Shown: positions 1-15,071 of the stretch, piece after piece
Position numbering within the stretch: the stretch's first letter is position 1
Layout of the letters: each line of letters starts with the position of its first letter
From: Calditrichia bacterium
Lineage (GTDB): Bacteria; Calditrichota; Calditrichia; JAJRVZ01
NCBI GenBank assembly: GCA_963777955.1
Contig: CAVZSQ010000022.1
Coordinates: 128,001-192,000, forward strand
Length of the DNA stretch: 64,000 bases
Direction: 5' to 3'
Made by a program: the position numbers and the translations under genes
Notes under the pieces: generated by a model
Databases searched by the model: none
Told to the model about the DNA's origin: nothing
Seen by the model: only the letters and a program-made list of their open reading frames with translations

Positions 1-1
1 A

Positions 2-409
2 CCGGTCTACCGTTATGCCTGCGATATCATCGGCGGCCTGAATAACTGGCTGACCGGCTGGGTGGATTGGAATATTGTGCTGGATGATAAAGGGGGTCCG
101 AACCATGTCCGTAACTGGTGTATTGCACCGGTTATAGTTAAACCGGAAACAAAAGAGGTGTACTATACACCCCTTTATTATGTAATGTGTCATTTCAGTA
201 AATATATGCGTCCTGGTGCCGTACGCCTCGGGATCAATAGCAGCAACGCAGATTTAATGATTACCGCCTGTCTGAATACGGATAACAGTATAGCCGCGGC
301 TGTTTTAAATCGGACAGAAAATCCGGTTACTTATGATATAAAACTGTCCGGCAAGGTAACCACAGTCACTATTCCGGAAAATGCCCTGCAGACCATAGTC
401 ATTCAATAA
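2..409 (+). CDS. Glycoside hydrolase family 30 (glucosylceramidase-like), C-terminal part, truncated at the window edge
   Basis: The frame is open from base 2: PVYRYACDIIGGLNNWLTGWVDWNIVLDDKGGPNHVRNWCIAP...YYVMCHFSKYMRPGAVR. This is the typical GH30 C-terminal signature, followed by the beta-sandwich. Confidence 0.88.
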   Translation, partial: PVYRYACDIIGGLNNWLTGWVDWNIVLDDKGGPNHVRNWCIAPVIVKPETKEVYYTPLYYVMCHFSKYMRPGAVRLGINSSNADLMITACLNTDNSIAAAVLNRTENPVTYDIKLSGKVTTVTIPENALQTIVIQ

Positions 410-444: not shown

Positions 445-2652
445 TTGAAAACGAATCACATCTTATCGGTTAAGGAAAAAATTGGATACGGACTTGGGGA
501 TACGGCTTCGAATTTTTATTTCCAGATGTATATCAATTTCCTGCTTTTCTTTTATACTGATGTTTTTGGAATTCCGGCGGCAGTGGCCGGTACCCTGTTT
601 CTGATTTCAAGAATCTGGGATGGTATCAATGATCCCATCATGGGCATGATCGCGGACCGCACCAACACCCGCTGGGGAAAATTCCGGCCCTATCTGCTGT
701 GGATGATGCTGCCGCTGGCAATAATCGGTGTGATCATGTTCACCACACCTGATCTGTCGGTTAAAGGGAAAATTATATATGCCTACATCACCTATAATTT
801 AATGATGATGGCTTATACCGCTATTAATATTCCTTATTCGGCCATGCTGGGCGTCCTTTCACCGGATACACAGCAAAGAACCAGCGCTTCGACCTACCGG
901 TTTGTGCTGGCCTTTGTCGGTGCTCTGGTAGTGCAAAGTGCCACGCTGCCATTAGTCTATTCCATCGGCCGTGTGGACCAGGGCATAACCCTGGCTGATC
1001 ACACCTTGAGAATTCAGGAAGTTAATAACCGGACCGCCAGAATTATTGTGCAGGCTGATGACGGGATTAACCAGACCACGAATGAATTTTTAATCAACAT
1101 TGACCGGAAGGGCGAACAAAGTCCAATCGTAAAAACGCCGCTAAACGACAGAGTCTTTGAACAGGGTTTTAAAATCAGTGAAACGAATATATCAGCAGTT
1201 TTTAACGATCCGGATGGAGATAAGTTGACCTATGAAGTCAGGAACAAGAACGACGATGTGGTAGAAGCCTATTTAACCGATAGTATCCTGACCCTGGCCG
1301 AAAAAGGGATTGGTGTTTCAGAAATAACTCTAACGGCTCGTGATGGTCATTATGGTCAGACCAACGATTTGTTCACGGTTTACGTTAATGCCGCCGGAAA
1401 TCATGCCCCTGTACTGGCTAGTGCGATTGCCGATACACTATTTGACCTGGGAACCCCGGAGCGCACTATCAATTTATCCGGCAGATTCTCCGACCAGGAC
1501 GGGGACCAACTTAAGTATGAAGTGCAAGCGGAGAATGGTACTGCTGTCTCGGCCAAAGTTTCAGACGCAATGCTGACTTTTCAGCTGAATAAGGTTGGTA
1601 TATCAAAATTTATTTTAACTGCCAGTGATAATAAAGGCGGGGAAGCCCGGGATATATTTTTAGTAAAATGTTCATCAGGAAAAAATGATCCTCCGGCTGT
1701 CGCCATTCCTCTGCAGAATGTCAAACTGGCGGCAGGATTCAAAGAGTACTCGCTTGATATTGGCGGGACTTTCCAGGATCCGGACGGCGATCCGTTGACC
1801 TATTCTATCCGCAAGGTTGATGTGGCCAAAGGATTTCAATTCACTTTAATAATCTACGGTTTGCTGGCCTGTATTTTATTCTATTTTACATTTAGAATGA
1901 CCAAAGAACGCGTACAACCGCCTGTGGATCAAAAAACATCAATGAAGAATGATCTGAAAGATCTGGTTCATAACAGGCCCTGGATGGTCCTGCTGGTTAT
2001 GGGTATTTTCACCCTTGGGTATATTATTATTCGTTCCGGCACCATCATGTATTATTTTAAATATTATATTGAAAATGAGCTCCTGGCTTCTCTGTTCATG
2101 GTTAGCGGAACAGCGGCAGTCATCGCCGGCGTGGCCTGTACGGATTTTCTAGCGAGAATCCTGGGTAAGAAAAAATTATATTTGATCGTCATGGGCCTGT
2201 CCACTATTCTGACCATGCTTTTTTATTTTATTCCCAGGGAACAAATTGTACTGGTTTTTACAGTAAATATTATCCTGCAATTTATCATGGCTCCGCAGGC
2301 CCCCTTGCTCTGGGCTATGTATGCCGATACGGCTGATTATTCTGAATGGAAAAATGGTCGAAGAGCTACCGGTCTTATTTTTTCGGCAGCAACATTTGCG
2401 CAGAAATTTGGCATGGCGTTGGGCGGAGGACTGGCCGGCTGGCTGTTAGCCATGTTCGGGTTCCAGGCCAATGTTCAGCAAACTCCGGAAACTCTCAATG
2501 GTATTTGTCTGATGATGAGTTTTATACCGGCCGTCGGGACCATTATTGCCACCGTGTTTGCTTTTTTCTATGAGTTGGATGATAAGACCATGAAAAAAAT
2601 TGAAAAAGATCTGGCTGAGCGAAAAAGTCAATACGAAATAAAAACAAGTTGA
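445..2652 (+). CDS. GPH-family (MelB-like) glycoside:cation symporter with a ~285-aa cadherin/Ig-like insertion in the TM5-TM6 loop
   Basis: GPH motifs EKIGYGLGD, WDGINDPIMGMIADRTNTRWGKFRPY, NIPYSAM and WAMYADTADYSEWKNGRRATG. Residues ~176-460 are hydrophilic with three F-x-D-[PQ]-DGD-x-L-x-Y motifs. Confidence 0.92.
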   Translation: MKTNHILSVKEKIGYGLGDTASNFYFQMYINFLLFFYTDVFGIPAAVAGTLFLISRIWDGINDPIMGMIADRTNTRWGKFRPYLLWMMLPLAIIGVIMFTTPDLSVKGKIIYAYITYNLMMMAYTAINIPYSAMLGVLSPDTQQRTSASTYRFVLAFVGALVVQSATLPLVYSIGRVDQGITLADHTLRIQEVNNRTARIIVQADDGINQTTNEFLINIDRKGEQSPIVKTPLNDRVFEQGFKISETNISAVFNDPDGDKLTYEVRNKNDDVVEAYLTDSILTLAEKGIGVSEITLTARDGHYGQTNDLFTVYVNAAGNHAPVLASAIADTLFDLGTPERTINLSGRFSDQDGDQLKYEVQAENGTAVSAKVSDAMLTFQLNKVGISKFILTASDNKGGEARDIFLVKCSSGKNDPPAVAIPLQNVKLAAGFKEYSLDIGGTFQDPDGDPLTYSIRKVDVAKGFQFTLIIYGLLACILFYFTFRMTKERVQPPVDQKTSMKNDLKDLVHNRPWMVLLVMGIFTLGYIIIRSGTIMYYFKYYIENELLASLFMVSGTAAVIAGVACTDFLARILGKKKLYLIVMGLSTILTMLFYFIPREQIVLVFTVNIILQFIMAPQAPLLWAMYADTADYSEWKNGRRATGLIFSAATFAQKFGMALGGGLAGWLLAMFGFQANVQQTPETLNGICLMMSFIPAVGTIIATVFAFFYELDDKTMKKIEKDLAERKSQYEIKTS

Positions 2653-2687
2653 TAAATAATAACAGTGAATTTAAATCCGGGAGTCGT

Positions 2688-3479
2688 ATGAAAATTAAAT
2701 TATATTTTATCTGCCTGGTTTTGCTGTGCACGGCAACTTATTGCGGCAAGGGGTGGAAACTGGCCTGGTCGGATGAATTTAATTATACCGGCCTGCCGGA
2801 TTCCCTGAAGTGGGGATATGATGTCGGGGGGCATGGCTGGGGAAACCAGGAAAAACAGTATTACACTGAGAACCGCCTGGAAAATGCCCGGGTGGAGAAT
2901 GGCTTGCTTACCATTGAAGCCCGTAGAGATTTCTGGAATGAGCATGAATATACTTCGGTGCGCCTGGTCAGCAGGGGCAAGGGTGACTGGACCTGCGGGC
3001 GTTTTGAGATACGGGCAAAACTCCCCTCAGGCCGGGGAACCTGGCCGGCAATCTGGATGCTGCCTACGACCGGGAATTATGGCAGCGGCGGCTGGCCGGA
3101 TAACGGTGAAATTGATATCATGGAACATGTGGGTTATAATCCGGGAATGATCCATGGTTCTACTCATTGCCAGGCCTATTACTGGAAAAATCATAATCAA
3201 AAAACAGGTACTATCAAAGTCCCCGATGCCGAAACGGAATTTCACAATTATATCCTGGAATGGTATCCGCAGGAAATCAAGGTGTTTCTTGACGACAGTC
3301 TTTATTTTACCTCCAAAAACGAAGGTAGCGGTTGGCAGGTCTGGCCTTTTGATAAACCATTTCATTTGCTGCTAAATATTGCTGTCGGCGGCGCCTGGGG
3401 AGGGGTACAGGGAATAGACAGTACCATTTTTCCGCAAAGGATGGATGTGGATTACGTCCGGGTTTTCCAACAAGAATAA
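2688..3479 (+). CDS. Glycoside hydrolase family 16 (laminarinase/beta-1,3-glucanase type), exported
   Basis: Motifs WSDEF, GTWPAIWML, catalytic GEIDIME, PFDKPFHLLLNIAVGG and VDYVRV. The ATG at 2688 follows GGGAG and leads into a hydrophobic signal peptide. Confidence 0.93.
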   Translation: MKIKLYFICLVLLCTATYCGKGWKLAWSDEFNYTGLPDSLKWGYDVGGHGWGNQEKQYYTENRLENARVENGLLTIEARRDFWNEHEYTSVRLVSRGKGDWTCGRFEIRAKLPSGRGTWPAIWMLPTTGNYGSGGWPDNGEIDIMEHVGYNPGMIHGSTHCQAYYWKNHNQKTGTIKVPDAETEFHNYILEWYPQEIKVFLDDSLYFTSKNEGSGWQVWPFDKPFHLLLNIAVGGAWGGVQGIDSTIFPQRMDVDYVRVFQQE

Positions 3480-3488
3480 TATGCTTTT

Positions 3489-6400
3489 ATGCAGAAGCAG
3501 ATCATTGCCGGCAAAGCCCCGCTTAAGAACAAATCCAAACCGGTCAAGGGCGGATATGTTGTTTTAGAAAATGAACTTTTCTACCGGATCGCCAATTATG
3601 ACTGCATGAATCCCTTCTTCATGAGTATCGTCAGCAATTCCGATCATTGGATGTTCATCTCGTCAAATGGTGCTCTCAGCGCAGGACGGAAAAATCCCGA
3701 TCACGCTTTATTCCCCTATTATACGGAAGACAAAATTCAGGACAGTGCCGGGATTACCGGCAGTAAGACCATTATTCGTCTTGAGGAAAAAGGGCGGGAT
3801 TTTTTATGGGAGCCCTTTTCCACCAGGTATCAGGGACTATACAATATTGACCGCAATATTTATAAAAATATATACGGTAATAAAATAGTTTTTGAAGAAA
3901 TAAATAATGACCTGAAACTCTGTTTTTCGTACACACTGGTTGAATAGCGAGCGGTTCGGCTTCATTAGAAAATCAAAAATCATAAATCTGGGCAGCAGAA
4001 ATGTAGCAGTTAACCTGTTGGATGGAATTCAGAATCTGTTGCCTTATGGTATCAGCCAGCGTTTCCAGGCAGACTATAGTACGCTGGCCGATGCCTATAG
4101 AAAAAATGAGTTAGAGCCTGCTGCCGGCCTGGGTATTTATTCATTAAGTTCCATCCCGGTAGACAAGGCCGAGCCCAGCGAAGCCTTAAAAGCCACCACG
4201 GTCTGGTCAGCTGGTATCCAGGTCAAGAATATACTGATCTCCTCAACTCAATTGGATTCATTCCGTAACGGTCTGGTGATTAAACAGGAGACCGATAAGC
4301 GGGCGGTTCGCGGAGCGTATTTGCTGAATATTGCGACCCGTCTTACGGTACATCAGGGAAAAACATGGTACATTGTAGCTGATGTCGATCAGGATGCAGC
4401 AGATGTCGCGGCCTTAACTCAAATGCTGGTTAGCAAAAAAAATCTGATCCAACAGATTGAAACAGATGTGGATCAGGGCACCGGGAATCTGATCAGCATG
4501 GTGGCCAACTCCGACGGACTGCAGAAATCGGCGGATAGATTAAGTACTTCCCGTCATTTTTCAAATGTGCTGTATAATATATCACGCGGCGGAGTGTTCT
4601 GTGATAATTATCAGATAAATACCGTGGACCTCAGATCATTTATCCATGAGGCCAATAAAAAAGTATTTAAGAAATTTCAGCATTACTTAAAAGGCCTGCC
4701 TGCAGCGATTGATTTCGGCGAGTTAATTAAGCAGGTTGATCAAAAACACGATCCCGATCTGCAGAGATTATGTTATGAATATCTGCCTTTGATCTTCAGC
4801 CGGCGCCATGGCGATCCCAGCCGGCCCTGGAACTGGTTTTCCATCGATATCAAGGATGAACAAGGGGAAAAAAATTTAAATTATCAGGGCAACTGGCGCG
4901 ACATTTTTCAAAACTGGGAAGCACTGGCCCTGTCATTCCCGGTCTATATCGAAAACATGATTTGTAAGTTTGTCAATGCCTCCACGCCCGATGGTTATAA
5001 TCCATACCGGGTCACCCGGGCCGGATTTGACTGGGAAGTGCTGGATCCGGCGGATGCCTGGTCCTATATCGGCTACTGGGGAGATCATCAGGTTATCTAT
5101 TTACTCAAGTTGCTGGAACTCTCGCGAAAATACCACCCCGGGAAATTAGAATATCTTTTAATCAGGGATATTTTTGTTTATGCCGATGTACCCTACCGTA
5201 TCAAAACATACCAGGAAATATTAGCGAATCCGCATAAAACCGTCGATTTTGACCGGGAGCAGGAGGATTTGGTCCGGCAGCGTGTAGAGGAAACCGGCAG
5301 CGATGGGAAACTATTGTGCAGCGGCCAGGGTAATATTTATCATGTCAATCTCGCCGAGAAACTATTGGTGCCCATTTTGACCAAGGTATCCAATTTTATT
5401 CCGGAAGCAGGAATCTGGATGAATACCCAGCGTCCCGAATGGAACGATGCGAACAATGCCCTGGTTGGTCACGGAGTATCGATGGTGACTTTATACTATC
5501 TGCGCCGGCACATATTATTCTGCCGCGACCTGTTTAATGCTTTTCAAACTGAAACTGTTCTGTTGTCCAGCGAGGTCAAGATCTGGTTTACCAGCATCTT
5601 CAGGGAATTGGAGCGACAAAAGTATTTATTGCAGAGCGCTGTCTCTGATAAAAACCGCAGAACCGTACTTGATCGGCTGGGTGAAGCAGCCAGCACTTAT
5701 CGCGCAAAAATTTATTCAAAGGGTTTCTCGGGGTACAGGTTAAAGGTCAAATCCGGACAACTGGTCAAATTTTGTGAATTAGTCCTGGCCTACATCGATC
5801 ATTCAATCCGGGCCAATAAGCGTGCAGATCAGTTGTATCATGCCTATAATCTGATGAAGACCGGAAAACAGAAAACCATCACTATCCGGCATCTGTATGA
5901 AATGCTGGAAGGGCAGGTGGCTATCCTGAGTTCCGGATTTCTGACGGCCAGGCAGGCGATTCAACTTTTGCGGGCGCTGAGAAACAGCAAACTCTATCGT
6001 GAAGATCAAAACACTTATATTCTGTATCCTGACCGCCAGTTACCCCGCTTCAGCAAGAAGAACAATATACCTGCCGGGGCCATTAAAAATCCGGCGTTAT
6101 TAAAAATCCTGCTGAACAGCAGGAATAAAATGATCATGAAACGGGATGCCAGGGGCGGACTTCATTTCAATGGCGCCTTCCGCAATGCTGCGGATCTGCG
6201 GCAGGCTCTGGACAGTATACGGCAAAATGATCCGCGGTCGCTCACTGCAGAGGATCTGGATCTTGTATTAAAAATATTTGAAGACATGTTTGATCATCAG
6301 TCTTTTACCGGAAGATCGGGAACGTTTTACAAGTACGAGGGTTTGGGCTGTATCTACTGGCATATGGTTTCCAAACTCCTGCTGGCCGTTCAGGAAAACT

Positions 6401-6945
6401 ATTATCGTGCTTTGCAGGTTAAAGAGGAAAAGGCCATCCTGGCGGAGTTAAGAGCATATTATTATGCCATCAGGGCCGGACTCGGCCTGGCCAAATCCCC
6501 CGACCTGTACGGCGGTTTTCCGACAGACCCCTACTCTCATACCCCCGGTCACACGGGAGCCCAGCAACCCGGAATGACCGGACAGGTGAAAGAAGATATT
6601 ATTTCCCGCTTTGCGGAACTGGGCATTATGATTCACGATGGGACGATCAGTTTTCATCCCGGATTGCTGCGCCGGGAAGAATTTCTGGTCGAATCCGGTT
6701 TGTTTTCATTTTTTGATGTTAACGGTAAGCGGCAAAGCATCCGGCTGGGATCAAAGTGTCTGGCTTTTACTCTGAACCAGGTGCCGATGGTGTATCATCT
6801 GTCCGAAACTGAAAAAATCGTCATGACCACCATCGCAAACAAAACGAAGACAATCCTGGGACTTACCCTTGACGGAAAATATTCTTTAGCCATTTTTAAT
6901 CGTGAAGGGAAGATCAAAAAACTGGATGTGTATTTAAAGTTTTGA
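3489..6945 (+). CDS. GH149-like beta-1,3-glucan phosphorylase (~1150 aa), one frame break near 3935
   Basis: ORFs 3489-3947 and 3940-6945 join as FSYTWLNSERFGF when one base is removed. Motifs RRHGDPSRPWN, GNWRDIFQNWEAL, YIGYWGDHQ, EWNDANNALVG, YEGLGCIYWHMVSKL and FPTDPYSHTP..QQPGMTGQVKED, plus size and GH16/GH30 context, fit GH149 as I recall it. Confidence 0.78.
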
Positions 6946-10308: not shown

Positions 10309-11706
10309 TTGACCATGAGTATACTCTGTAAAATAATCGACGTATCTTTATATATTAAAAGATGTGTATTGGCCATACTACCCGCCCGGAAATTATGGCC
10401 CGGATTGTTATTTGTGACGGTCTTATTTTGCAGTAATTATTCATGGGCCCAGAATATCCGGCAATTGACCCTGCAACAGGCTGTACAATTAGCCCTGCGG
10501 GAAAATATCAATCTGCAGCAGGCACAAAACCAGTACCAGCGCAGTACCATTGATTGGCGGCAGGCACGCTCTAATCTGTTCCCTGATCTGTCGGCCAGTG
10601 CCTCATTGAGCCGCGACTATCCGGCCAAGGGCAGCAATAGCCAGAGTTTCAGTGCCGCTGTCAGCAGCAGTCTGAATCTTTTTAATGGTTTTGGCGATAT
10701 GGCCGGCATTCATTCGGCCAGATACAATATGCTGGCTGACCAGTCCAGTCTGGCCAGGCAGAGCGAGGCTATATCTTTCGAGATCGCCAGCCGTTATCTG
10801 CAGACGGTTCTGGATAGTGCTTTCATTGCTATCGAACAGGAAAATCTCAGATCGCAGCAACTGCAATTACAGCGGATCCAGGAATTTCAAAAAGCCGGAA
10901 ACCGTTCGATAGCCGATGTATACCAGCAAATGGCGGATATTAAACAGAGCGAATTACAGGTTTTGCAGGCATTGAATAATTATGACATAAGTTGTCTGCA
11001 GGTACTGCAAACCCTGGGCCAGCCAGCCGAAAACGAGATCAGCTTCATTGCTCCGCCGGTAAGCCGATTAGCCGCTGCCCTGCCGCAGCATCTTGATTCC
11101 ATAACCATCCAACTGGCTGTGGCAAAGCGTAATGATGCGCAGGCGCAACGCCAGCAGATTTCAGCAGCTCTTGAACAGATTCGCAGCGCACAGGCTGATT
11201 ACTGGCCTTCGTTACAACTATCAGCCAGCGGACGATCAAGTTACAGCGACCGCCTGGACACTCCGGGATTTAATGGCCAGTTTTTTGACGACAATCCCAG
11301 CGCCAGCGTCGGTTTAAACATGAGTGTTCCTTTATTCGACCGGTTGCTGACCAGTCATAGCGTTCAGCGTGCCAGGATCAATTATGCGGATCAGAATTTA
11401 AGCCTGAAGAACCTGGAATTACAAATCGGCTCGGAATTGCGCCAGGCCCTGTTAAATTATACCACGGCGGTTAAACAGCGTGAAGTGGCTCAGGCCCTGT
11501 TTCAGTACAGCAATGAAGCCTTAAAAGTTTCGGAAGAGCGCTACCGGGTCGGAGCGGTTACCTTTGTGGAGTTAAGCCAGGTACGGGCGACTTTTGTCGA
11601 TGCCTCCTACCAGCAGGTCAGCGCGGATTATAATCTATTATTGCAATATATTACGGTTTTTTATTATGCCGGGAATATCAATCAGGCCCTGGCCGTGATT
11701 TATTAG
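10309..11706 (+). CDS. TolC-family outer-membrane efflux protein
   Basis: LTLQQAVQLALREN after a signal-like segment; FPDLSASAS, LNLFNGF, WPSLQL, VPLFD and ERYRVG. The exact start is uncertain. Confidence 0.9.
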   Translation: MTMSILCKIIDVSLYIKRCVLAILPARKLWPGLLFVTVLFCSNYSWAQNIRQLTLQQAVQLALRENINLQQAQNQYQRSTIDWRQARSNLFPDLSASASLSRDYPAKGSNSQSFSAAVSSSLNLFNGFGDMAGIHSARYNMLADQSSLARQSEAISFEIASRYLQTVLDSAFIAIEQENLRSQQLQLQRIQEFQKAGNRSIADVYQQMADIKQSELQVLQALNNYDISCLQVLQTLGQPAENEISFIAPPVSRLAAALPQHLDSITIQLAVAKRNDAQAQRQQISAALEQIRSAQADYWPSLQLSASGRSSYSDRLDTPGFNGQFFDDNPSASVGLNMSVPLFDRLLTSHSVQRARINYADQNLSLKNLELQIGSELRQALLNYTTAVKQREVAQALFQYSNEALKVSEERYRVGAVTFVELSQVRATFVDASYQQVSADYNLLLQYITVFYYAGNINQALAVIY

Positions 11707-11729
11707 TGCAGAGCAGGAAGGATAGTGTA

Positions 11730-13007
11730 ATGAAAAAGAAAGTGATTGTCGCTGCCGTCATTTTACTGGGATTGGTACTACTGATTTACGGTATCTATAA
11801 TTTCAGTGGTGGAAATAGTAATAATAAGTTTCAACTGGCTGATATCAGCCGCGGGGATCTGGTTACTACCATTTCCAGCAGCGGAACCCTGAGTCCGGTT
11901 ACCACCGTGGATGTGGGTACCCAGGTCTCGGGAACCCTGGCCCGGATTTTTGTGGACTTCAACGATGTGGTCAAAAAAGGGCAGTTGCTGGCGGTGCTGG
12001 ATACGGTGATGCTCAAGGCCTCGCTGGTAGATGCCGATGCGGGCGTGCAGCGTTCGGAAGCCTTGCTGGAACAAGCGCAACTGGATTATAACCGCAACAA
12101 GCCGCTCTATGAAAAAAACCTGATTTCAGAGGCCGAGTTTTTACCTTACCAGATAAATTTAAAAACACAGAGGGCAAATGTAAAATCAGCTCAGGCATCT
12201 TACCAGCGCGCCGAACGGAATCTGAAATATGCCGTAATCTGCTCACCTATTGCCGGAACAGTAATCCAGCGCAATGTTGAAGAAGGTCAGACGGTAGCGG
12301 CAAGTTTTTCCACGCCGACTCTGTTTAAAATCGCCGAAGATCTGTCCCAGATGGAAATCCTGGCTGATGTGGATGAAAGCGATATCGGCTTAATCAAGGA
12401 GGGCCAGCCGGTGCGTTTTGATGTACAGGCCTACCCTGACAAAAAGTTTGAAGGCACAGTCAACCAAAAGCGTCTGCAGCCGACGGTTGTTTCCAACGTG
12501 GTTACATATACCGTGGTGGTCAGTGCCATTAATAAAGATTATCTGCTGCTGCCGGGTATGACCGCAACCGTGGATTTTATAATCGATGAAAAGAAAGATG
12601 CACTGCTGGTACCCAATACCGCCTTACGCTTCCAGGCCCCGGAAGATATGTTGCAGAAAGCCAGGGCCGAAGCGGAAAAATTTTTTGCAGCACTGCCCGA
12701 TTCGGTCAAAGCGAAACGAGCCGGCGGCGGAATGGGGGCAGGACCGGGAGCACAGGGCCAGGGCGGTACGGAACGGCCGCAAATGGCCGGAAATTTTAAA
12801 ATGATCTGGTACATCGATGAGAATGGCAAACCGGTCGCAGACCGCGTGGTGCTGGGACAGACAGACGGTACCAATACCGAAATTGTGCGCAGCCGGAAAT
12901 TACAGGCCGGGATGAAAGTCATCATAGCCCTGGCCGGTGAAGAACAAAACCGGAAAACCACAACCACCTCCGGGCCGATGGGACCAATGGGCAGGCCGCC
13001 TTTTTAA
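11730..13007 (+). CDS. Periplasmic adaptor / membrane fusion protein (MacA-like)
   Basis: N-terminal TM; VDVGTQVSG, VDFNDVVKKGQLLA, ICSPIAGTVIQRNVEEGQTVAASFSTPTLF, VDESDIG and LLPGMTATV. Confidence 0.93.
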   Translation: MKKKVIVAAVILLGLVLLIYGIYNFSGGNSNNKFQLADISRGDLVTTISSSGTLSPVTTVDVGTQVSGTLARIFVDFNDVVKKGQLLAVLDTVMLKASLVDADAGVQRSEALLEQAQLDYNRNKPLYEKNLISEAEFLPYQINLKTQRANVKSAQASYQRAERNLKYAVICSPIAGTVIQRNVEEGQTVAASFSTPTLFKIAEDLSQMEILADVDESDIGLIKEGQPVRFDVQAYPDKKFEGTVNQKRLQPTVVSNVVTYTVVVSAINKDYLLLPGMTATVDFIIDEKKDALLVPNTALRFQAPEDMLQKARAEAEKFFAALPDSVKAKRAGGGMGAGPGAQGQGGTERPQMAGNFKMIWYIDENGKPVADRVVLGQTDGTNTEIVRSRKLQAGMKVIIALAGEEQNRKTTTTSGPMGPMGRPPF

Positions 13008-13055
13008 ACCAGCTGCTATAATTTTATCTCTGAAAGTAGTTTGAGGAAAATCATA

Positions 13056-13817
13056 ATGGATTATGTGATCGAAACCAGGAAACTTACCAAAACATTTACA
13101 ATCGGGGAGGTCTCCGTACATGCCCTGCGCGGAATCGATCTGAAAATCGCCAAAGGTGAATTCGTGGCGATAATGGGAGCTTCCGGCTCCGGAAAGTCTA
13201 CCCTGATGAATCTTCTGGGCTGCCTGGATACTCCCAGCAGCGGAGATTATTTTTTGGATGGGCGCCATATCAACGAGATGAGCCGCGACGAATATGCCGA
13301 CATTCGCAATCAAAAGATCGGATTTGTTTTCCAGGGTTTTAATCTTTTGTCACGCACCAATGCCCTGGAAAATGTGGAATTGCCGTTATTATACGACCGT
13401 CAGTTGCGAATAAAAGATCCAAAACAGGCGGCGCTGGCCGCGCTGGAGCGGGTGAACCTGCTGGATCGCAAAAGTCATGAACCGAATCAACTCTCCGGCG
13501 GACAGCAGCAGCGGGTGGCCATTGCCCGGGCCCTGGTCAATCAGCCGGCCATTATCCTGGCTGATGAACCAACCGGCAATCTGGACTCGCACACTTCGGT
13601 CGATGTTATGGCAGTATTCCAGGAATTGAATGAACAGGGTATTACAATTATTCTGGTAACCCACGAACGGGACATTGCCCAGTATACCCGGCGCATTGTC
13701 GAAATGCGCGATGGACTGATCCTGCATGATCATCCCGTGGAAAATCGCCATGATGCCAGGACCGATTTACTGGCTTTGCAGGATGAATTGATTACTGATC
13801 CAGCCGCGGTTAAGTAA
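13056..13817 (+). CDS. ABC transporter ATP-binding protein (MacB/LolD type)
   Basis: Walker [10 protein letters not shown], signature [15 protein letters not shown], Walker [12 protein letters not shown] and H-loop VTHE. Confidence 0.96.
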
Positions 13818-13844
13818 CCATTTGGATTGAGGAGTTGTGCAGTT

Positions 13845-15071
13845 ATGTTACGGTTATATTTCATCATTAAGGCAGCATATAAAAGTTTGTTGAAAAACCG
13901 CACCCGCAGTTTACTCACCTCGCTGGGTATTATCATCGGCGTCAGTGCGGTAATTGTAATGGTGGCGATCGGGGCAGGATCACAGGAAATGATTGCCCGC
14001 AGTATTGATTCACTGGGCAGCAACCTGATTATCGTTTATCCCGGTGTCAGCCGCAGCGGGGGTGTCAGCCGCGGATCCGGAAGTGTTAATCGTATTACAC
14101 TGGAAAATGTGGAGAAACTAAAAAAAGAGGCAACACTGATAGACAAAATTTCCCCGATTGTGCGCAGCGGCGGCCAGATCATCGGCGGGCAGGGAAACTG
14201 GTTTACCTCGGTTTTTGGTGTTTCAACCGATTATTTCGATATACGCTCGATGCAGGTTGAATCAGGCGAATTTTTCAGCGAACGAGATATCCGGGCCCGT
14301 AAAAAAGTGGCAATTCTGGGTAAAACAGTTGCTGATAATCTCTTTCCCAACCAGGATCCCAGTGGTGCAAAAATCCGTATCCGTAACGTGCCTTTTACGG
14401 TGATCGGTGTGTTAAAAGCCAAAGGCCAGAGCGCCATGGGTTCGGATCAGGATGACCTGATCCTGGCGCCCTATACCACTGTCTTATACCGGCTGCGCGG
14501 GCATTGGGGCATGCATGTCGATATGATCAACATCAGCGCCGTAAATAAAGAGCAGATTAAACCAGCCGAACAGGAAATCCGCGGTATTATGCGTGCGGCA
14601 CACCGCCTGGAAGTGGGCCAGGATGATGATTTTACTATTCGTGACCAGGAGGAAATAACCGAAACGGCATCGCAAACCTCGCGGGTGATGACCCTGCTGC
14701 TGGGCTCCATCGCAGCCGTGTCCCTGATTGTCGGCGGGATCGGGATCATGAACATCATGCTGGTATCGGTCACGGAACGGACGCGCGAGATAGGTATCCG
14801 TATGTCGGTGGGAGCACGCAGCGGCGATATCCTGTCCCAGTTTCTGACCGAAGCCACCGTGCTCAGCCTGGCCGGCGGCATTATCGGGATATTATTATCG
14901 TTCGGGATTTCATACATTTTGAATCATTTTACGGAAATTGATGCGTTGATCCAGTTGCCGGTGGTGATTATGGCTGTGCTGTTTTCCGGTATAGTGGGAA
15001 TTTTCTTCGGCTTCTATCCGGCCAGAAAAGCCGCTGCGCTCAATCCGATCGATGCCCTGCGTTATGAATAA
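13845..15071 (+). CDS. ABC transporter permease (MacB/FtsX type)
   Basis: RSLLTSLGIIIGVSAVIVMVAIG, VGGIGIMNIMLVSVTERTREIGIRMSVGA and FGFYPARKAAALNPIDALRYE. Confidence 0.95.
   Translation: MLRLYFIIKAAYKSLLKNRTRSLLTSLGIIIGVSAVIVMVAIGAGSQEMIARSIDSLGSNLIIVYPGVSRSGGVSRGSGSVNRITLENVEKLKKEATLIDKISPIVRSGGQIIGGQGNWFTSVFGVSTDYFDIRSMQVESGEFFSERDIRARKKVAILGKTVADNLFPNQDPSGAKIRIRNVPFTVIGVLKAKGQSAMGSDQDDLILAPYTTVLYRLRGHWGMHVDMINISAVNKEQIKPAEQEIRGIMRAAHRLEVGQDDDFTIRDQEEITETASQTSRVMTLLLGSIAAVSLIVGGIGIMNIMLVSVTERTREIGIRMSVGARSGDILSQFLTEATVLSLAGGIIGILLSFGISYILNHFTEIDALIQLPVVIMAVLFSGIVGIFFGFYPARKAAALNPIDALRYE

Follow-up and report, generated by a model that had tools for sequence, protein, structure and literature searches.

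The first genes of the window (the whole 64,000-nucleotide stretch of DNA analysed here) raise the question of how a sugar carrier came to hold an array of cadherin-like repeats in a membrane loop, how the array is folded there, and what it may do for the carrier. The carrier itself, read from a single unbroken frame (Table 1), belongs to a familiar family: it matches the GPH model TIGR00792 at 418.9 bits (cut-off 231.35), split in two pieces flanking a hydrophilic insert, and Pfam MFS_2 at 323.7 (cut-off 27), and it misses the ortholog cut-offs of the MelB and YagG models (PRK10429, 246 against 456; PRK09669, 448 against 610). The AlphaFold2 core superimposes on MelB with a Z score of 39.2 and an rmsd of 3.3 Å over 430 aligned residues, which is the 12-TM MFS fold. 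Residues D59, N62, D63, and T125 align with the TM2/TM4 cation site of MelB, where we take their counterparts to be D55, N58, D59, and T121, and all four are present in 20 of 20 rows of carriers with the same insert, whereas the sugar-site residues are unlike those of MelB. Judged from its sequence, the core is thus a cation symporter with an intact MelB-like cation site and a different sugar site. It shares the 12-TM core and the cation site with the characterized MelB/GPH symporters (TC 2.A.2; PDB 4M64, 7L16, 9OLI), but differs from them in those sugar-site residues and in a loop 5-6 of 288 aa. Because the sugar site departs from that of MelB, we assign the putative substrate from the neighboring genes alone, as probably a small beta-glucoside from the breakdown of beta-1,3-glucan.

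Those neighbors comprise a TonB-dependent receptor, secreted GH16 and CBM9 proteins, and a GH30 gene upstream, and GH16 and GH149 genes downstream, a content that matches that of the beta-1,3-glucan clusters described in the portion of PMC5827456 consulted. The GH149 gene is 83% identical to its intact counterpart at locus L001, which matches PDB 6hq6 at 1318 bits; the extra base that divides it into two frames in the window is absent from contigs of sequencing runs X3 and X7, and represents either an assembly error or a strain-specific lesion. Scans for promoters and terminators gave only chance-level results, and no RNA holder is listed. Further along the window (10309-15071), genes that by eye encode TolC-like, RND-adaptor, ABC ATPase, and permease proteins stand in a row, as in systems of the MacAB-TolC type.

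The insert occupies the TM5-TM6 loop, which alignment equates with loop 5-6 of MelB; the loop measures 288 aa, 281 residues more than the 7 aa found at 33 of 71 related genome loci. Loop 5-6 of 12-TM MFS carriers faces the periplasm. A preliminary description of this DNA had divided the insert into two complementary half repeats enclosing two whole ones, all within an outward and normally short loop, and each element of that account is borne out here: a profile, for which 85 repeats were taken out of surface-array proteins, maps the four parts in the same order and within the same limits (Table 1), with the two halves complementing each other along the profile except at positions 45-52. Pfam Big_9 matches R2 (aa 319-401) at 37.9 (cut-off 23.6), and Cadherin_4 matches the insert at 23.4, slightly below its cut-off of 25.1. 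The model of the insert is all-beta, and its Foldseek matches (6dms and 4m00 among them; E values of 1e-8 to 1e-5) are the Ig-like domains of GH107, which fit best, SraP, and cadherins; the closest solved relative by sequence is again SraP (4m03). Among the matches listed, VIA fold searches returned MFS cores only, and querying the ESM Atlas with aa 140-495 produced no usable match. The insert has a net charge of -14 (median -23 across 57 relatives), and its GC content is close to that of the flanks.

Table 1. Features of the carrier gene, its insert and neighbors in the window, and split-insert carriers of the POT family at other loci
Feature	Position	Strand	Remarks
GH30 glycoside hydrolase gene, 3' end	1..409	+	directly upstream of carrier; start outside window; lipoprotein-like N-terminus by eye
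GPH (MelB-type) cation/glycoside symporter with loop insert	445..2652	+	735 aa; family models, MelB alignment, AlphaFold2 core match
TM1-TM5 of carrier	445..960	+	MelB cation-site residues D59, N62, D63, T125 retained
C-terminal half of cadherin-like repeat (candidate first half of split domain)	988..1104	+	aa 182-220, profile positions 53-92
Whole repeat R1	1117..1392	+	aa 225-316, profile positions 2-93; Ca2+ motif degenerate
Whole repeat R2, Pfam Big_9	1399..1671	+	aa 319-409, profile positions 1-91; Ca2+ motif intact
N-terminal half of repeat (candidate second half of split domain)	1684..1815	+	aa 414-457, profile positions 1-44
TM6-TM12 and C-terminal helix of carrier	1825..2652	+	domain matches, AlphaFold2 model
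GH16 glycoside hydrolase gene	2649..3479	+	directly downstream of carrier
GH149 beta-1,3-oligosaccharide phosphorylase gene	3489..6945	+	two frames here, one extra base near 3934
POT peptide carrier with split insert	L106:611-2704	+	Big_9 halves and whole repeat
POT peptide carrier with split insert	L107:571-2667	+	Big_9 halves and whole repeat
POT peptide carrier with split insert	L108:750-2849	-	Big_9 halves and whole repeat

The layout is not peculiar to one assembly. The loop measures 287-289 aa at 11 of the 71 related loci, 100-123 aa at 23 (where the halves stand alone), and 7 aa at 33, while at the remaining 4 it is a longer variant with other inserts between the halves. Among the best 120 of 7539 proteins, at least 57 (a lower bound that includes the window's own) have all three domains' worth of insert, 1 has two, 8 have one, and 54 have no insert, and the ESM Atlas holds a 51-member cluster of the three-domain kind. 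Of the named relatives, the nearest, 92% identical, is from Calditrichota, and the matches listed also include records of Bacteroidota, KSB1, Fidelibacterota, and Krumholzibacteriota; within the class of the window genome, the whole insert is found in 4 of 86 genomes. Contigs from related strains bridge both junctions between insert and carrier (906-1229 in run X3, 1708-1913 in run X7), which supplies the junction support that the preliminary description had called for. Given these contigs and the recurrence of the layout in 11 of 71 loci and 57 of 120 listed proteins, a chimeric assembly is ruled out.

Several carriers depart from the basic forms. In one-domain carriers at L058, L061, L062, and L068 (Myxococcota and Planctomycetota records), extra stretches of about 45-210 residues that look helical lie between the halves or inside them. 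One-domain forms are also found in cultured hosts, Marinifilum flexuosum and Polaribacter marinus. In L034, L045, L052, P0240, P0271, and P0283, a hairpin of the C-terminal half or of R2 is lengthened by about 20 residues that look amphipathic and might contact the membrane. Loci L021 and L042 each carry two genes for GPH-type carriers, of which one bears the insert and the other apparently lacks it. The window genome has two further GPH paralogues, one in pieces through a frame change (G000:C18:145234-146690) and one intact with a short loop on C3.

How, then, is the array folded between two adjacent helices? We consider it likely, with a probability of about 0.85, that the two halves form one split domain and close the insert into a three-domain ring, a geometry drawn from deletion variants, motif pairing, and folding models; the proposal of the preliminary description that the halves pair thereby gains considerable ground. 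Among the best 120 of 7539 proteins, all nine shortened forms retain both halves and lack whole repeats from between them. In the two-domain form (P0224), R1 is gone, and about 29 residues bridge the gap in place of 4. Five one-domain forms that keep the N-terminal NxxP motif have linkers of 27-40 residues in place of the lost repeats, as expected if NxxP is tied to the domain's far end, whereas three one-domain rows (sharing one loop sequence), and likewise the Bacteroidota forms, have a short linker and have dropped the first strand. Motif pairing points the same way. A GF motif in the N-terminal half of a repeat and a glutamate in its C-terminal half occur together in R1 (G in 54, F in 57, and E in 57 of 57 proteins) and, across the two separated halves, in the split domain (G in 55, F in 54, E in 57), while R2 lacks both (G in 5, E in 7); such loss of motif pairs within repeat borders is as expected for a ring.

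The folding models are consistent with this arrangement. AlphaFold2, run with 69 rows (a single-sequence run was unusable, at a pLDDT of 38.9), gave a mean pLDDT of 86.8 (about 80-90 in the halves) and a pTM of 0.81, and predicts both halves as beta structure that jointly shows the strand pattern of one whole repeat. Modeling the C-terminal half as a complex with the rest of the protein lends weak support, with a score of 0.50 where the best control reaches 0.11; likeness to solved folds can also carry split halves past the mark. At least 92% of contacts recur between runs, and the partner pLDDT is at least 76. Of 157 solved pairs, 116 reach the mark used for such complexes, as do 2 of 215 mismatched ones; 18 of the 157 and both mismatches do so at 0.60 or below. 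The competing layout of three permuted domains in a row, each C-terminal half paired with the next N-terminal half, is disfavored by the mismatched motif pairs that it would create and by the long linkers of the deletion forms. Inter-domain linker length was discarded as a sign of a ring, the spacers of ordinary arrays being mostly 0-4 residues (commonest 3) and those of the insert 4-5. In the cadherin topology, the cut falls at the domain end where the last strand also finishes. The sandwich of the split domain would thus place its new ends side by side on TM5 and TM6, R1 would begin near the membrane, and R2 would return to the far tip of the split domain, completing a triangle.

The positions that are conserved across this geometry are informative. 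Over 57 three-domain proteins, the invariant positions of the insert are fold and Ca2+ residues only. The motifs NxxP, DxD, and AxD are complete in R2 (N319, D350, and D395, each in 57 of 57) and, across the halves, in the split domain (D206 in 56 for the C-terminal half; N414 in 52 and D445 in 55 for the N-terminal half); the C-terminal half also keeps E192 in 57 of 57. The Ca2+ motif that the preliminary description saw in both whole repeats therefore stands for R2, but in R1 it has mostly decayed (N of NxxP in 5 of 57; D255 in 17, D257 in 18, and D259 in 22). In alignment with SraP, D300, D350, and D395 fall on its Ca2+ ligands D645, D690, and D734. Since D350 and D395 correspond to D690 and D734, the equivalent site in the split domain needs D445 and D206, and we infer that it would take one ligand from each half. 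On these alignments, Ca2+ binding by the insert is predicted with good confidence. The rest of the surface drifts fast, most proteins being 29-54% identical to the window's insert while their cores are 70-86% identical. No insert column holds a conserved Trp across the 57 rows, and Tyr or Trp fills at least 40% of rows in three columns of the repeat core and at Y303 (29 of 57). In comparison with L001, each of the four parts has more synonymous codon changes than replacements.

As for its origin, each half is about as similar to array repeats as its sister halves are, which fits capture of three array periods. Array proteins such as P0030 (Big_9 with a secretion tail) match the insert at 37-41%. 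The insert may have entered loop 5-6 long ago as a fragment that spans exactly three periods of a Ca2+-binding surface-protein array and is cut mid-repeat. Insert and core identities correlate across the 57 three-domain proteins (Spearman 0.83, over non-independent pairs), and of 28 supported splits of the core tree, 22 recur in the insert tree and 2 conflict. On a core tree of 78 rows (built by a quick method, with long branches near the root and 22 near-duplicate, partial, or long rows excluded), three-domain forms are spread over deep as well as shallow branches, and forms with one domain or no insert nest among them, as they also do in a 74-row tree; the three-domain label requires 8 changes, at least 6 of them forced by the starred branches. 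The pattern is most simply read as a single old gain, with repeated reduction and loss afterward; gain of the insert through recombination between homologues is also possible. Recent capture from a gene of the window genome is rejected, as only a single weak repeat match, at 32%, exists elsewhere in it, and a search for a phage source found no match in 50,697 records.

The loci of these relatives indicate what the insert accompanies. Across 16 three-domain loci (whose flank lengths vary), GH16 occurs in 8, GH3 in 8, GH30 in 7, and GH149 in 6, and the same glycoside hydrolase families surround 17 close insert-less relatives, again with varying flanks. L002, with the insert, and L014, without it, carry GH30, carrier, GH3, GH17, and GH149 in identical order. 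Of 25 distant loci with one-domain or variant carriers, 20 have GH94 beside the carrier (flank lengths vary), and L082 combines a three-domain carrier with an adjoining GH94. GH30 lies directly upstream in 7 of the 11 three-domain loci with at least 1 kb of upstream sequence, against 2 of 17 close insert-less loci, a comparison to be read as a lead since the loci are kin and include two near-duplicate pairs. No partner gene is common to all the three-domain loci: 4 of 11 lack an adjacent GH30, and L082 has GH94. From this gene content, the insert is an accessory that accompanies beta-glucoside import generally: it is unnecessary for import, because insert-less close relatives occupy the same beta-1,3-glucan loci, and not laminarin-specific, because it is also found beside GH94.

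Carriers with an Ig-like domain in an outward loop, as here, have precedents. In PepT1 and PepT2 (SLC15), tandem Ig-like domains in an outward loop bind trypsin, which makes the substrate, and transport persists when the extracellular domain is removed (PMC4597091, in the part consulted). In Acinetobacter baumannii, AmpG1 has an Ig-like insert of about 196 aa in a periplasmic loop, and this insert binds Slt, the hydrolase upstream (apparent Kd about 6 nM, measured by MST; PMC13507758, likewise in part). The peptide carriers are, like ours, MFS proteins with outward Ig-like domains, but belong to another family, have two such domains, and are eukaryotic; AmpG1 is a bacterial MFS carrier with a periplasmic Ig-like insert, but belongs to the AmpG family, carries it in loop TM11-12, and is restricted to one genus. 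The consulted portions of PMC4597091 make no mention of a cadherin-like repeat or a permutation, and those of PMC13507758 describe no split repeat; the PepT domain is also absent from the two PDB sequence matches of the insert and from the fold matches listed.

Because PepT1/2 and AmpG1 both recruit an enzyme that makes their substrate, we place first, tentatively and at odds somewhat below even, the reading that the ring is a Ca2+-braced docking platform for periplasmic glucanases. The carrier would import a small beta-glucoside (laminaribiose, for example) with Na+ or H+ by the rocker switch of MelB, and Ca2+ would brace the split domain and R2. The ring would act as an accessory adapter outside the transport path, docking glucanases (GH30, GH3, GH16, or GH5, by lineage) beside the entry, with their products released at the carrier. 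Against docking stand the lack of a universal partner gene, the fast-drifting surface, and the insert-less relatives in the same loci.

The ring might instead bind beta-glucan oligosaccharides itself and raise their local concentration at the entry, which we regard as unlikely. Carriers with the insert lie mostly in beta-glucan loci, and related domains have been linked to glycans: the part of PMC12153261 consulted credits Saccharophagus degradans cadherin domains with carbohydrate binding and names RapA2, which consists of cadherin-like domains, as a Ca2+ lectin (both second-hand), and the Ig-like domains of GH107, the best fold match of the insert, are suggested fucoidan binders (PMC7698502, also in part). 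However, the insert has neither a conserved Trp column nor conserved exposed aromatics, and it is the same in beta-1,3-glucan and GH94 loci.

Equally doubtful is the view that the insert is a tolerated passenger, an old and cheap insertion selected merely to stay folded and shed stepwise. Its repeated shrinkage and loss (the 8 label changes on the core tree), its rarity in the class (4 of 86 genomes), and conservation confined to fold and Ca2+ residues are what such a passenger would leave. Yet the insert has been kept, co-diverging with its carrier, over cores only 47-57% identical, although clean losses are viable; one lineage retains a remodeled single domain, others add new pieces between the halves, and an apparently independent case is seen in POT carriers (described below).

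Rather improbable is a scaffolding role, in which the ring would staple TM5 to TM6, oligomerize carriers through ordinary contacts or swapped halves, or space the carrier from peptidoglycan or the TonB receptor. The precedent is SraP, whose cadherin-like modules are stiffened by Ca2+, dimerize, and alter shape without it (PMC4047093, in the part consulted). On the other side, one-domain forms with short linkers are able to fold within one chain, and from the cadherin topology, swapped halves would need the same bend-back of the chain as a ring within a single carrier. A Ca2+ sensor that gates uptake through movement of TM5 and TM6 is very unlikely: two nearly invariant Ca2+ motifs, one of them built from both halves, and the shape change of the SraP modules would suit it, but one-domain Bacteroidota forms have lost the motifs and periplasmic Ca2+ would normally saturate such sites.

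The docking reading, if correct, would bring glycan uptake by bacterial degraders of sediment and aquatic settings into the set of carriers with docking domains, so far represented by PepT1/2 and a single permease from Acinetobacter. The series of three-, two-, one-, and no-domain forms in similar carriers and loci offers natural controls for the role of the domain. A 2026 review gives bacterial glycoside transporters as 400-550 aa, with the C-terminal domain of LacS as the sole named exception, and its main text contains neither "Ig-like" nor "cadherin" (PMC13543919, in the part consulted). In the literature searched, largely outside subscription journals, we found no GPH carrier with such an insert or with a split-domain layout, the consulted portions of the reviews PMC8154325 and PMC13543919 included, and no paper that joins cadherin-like domains, circular permutation, and a bacterial transporter. 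The statement in the preliminary description that no such MFS carrier had been described thus holds for the permuted layout, but outward Ig-like domains on MFS carriers are known from PepT1/PepT2 and AmpG1, in the portions of the papers cited above. The SraP CDHL modules, the GH107 Ig-like domains, and the secreted arrays resemble the insert in fold or sequence, but are arranged head to tail in surface proteins; unlike them, the window's repeats are housed in a loop of an inner-membrane protein, and one of them is split. The case shows a head-to-tail array entering a 7-residue loop without tearing the fold, which could be useful for grafting tags or fiducials onto small transporters.

Split inserts also occur outside the GPH family. 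One lead from the ESM Atlas is a cluster of POT carriers with Big_9 (62 members, 19% with the family). Five long POT frames were then picked among the matches listed for 201 genomes of a single order of Bacteroidota (Bacteroidales). Three of the five (Table 1) have, between their last two helices, a C-terminal half (Big_9 positions 55-88), a whole repeat, and an N-terminal half (16-60), although the half matches are weak as isolated pieces (E of 0.007 and 0.003 in L106). Because repeat type, cut point, loop, and family all differ from those of the GPH case, the two split inserts look convergent. The other two, L109 and L110 (654- and 706-aa frames), are long POT carriers with loop inserts that have no match to the repeat profiles.

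It is conceivable, though we would bet against it, that a halved array repeat is a recurrent plug-in platform of MFS carriers, one that staples two neighboring helices and leaves room between its halves for cargo, be it a pair of repeats, a single repeat, helical pieces, or nothing. Such a platform would have arisen at least twice, in GPH loop 5-6 and in the last outward loop of POT carriers, and here would form a Ca2+-braced ring that recruits glucanases into a hydrolysis-import unit without a binding protein of the ABC type. A possible third split-domain case is provided by TLC/MFS carriers with He_PIG in the ESM Atlas, a lead that consists of clusters of 106 and 58 members, mostly from Pseudomonadota where the source is known.
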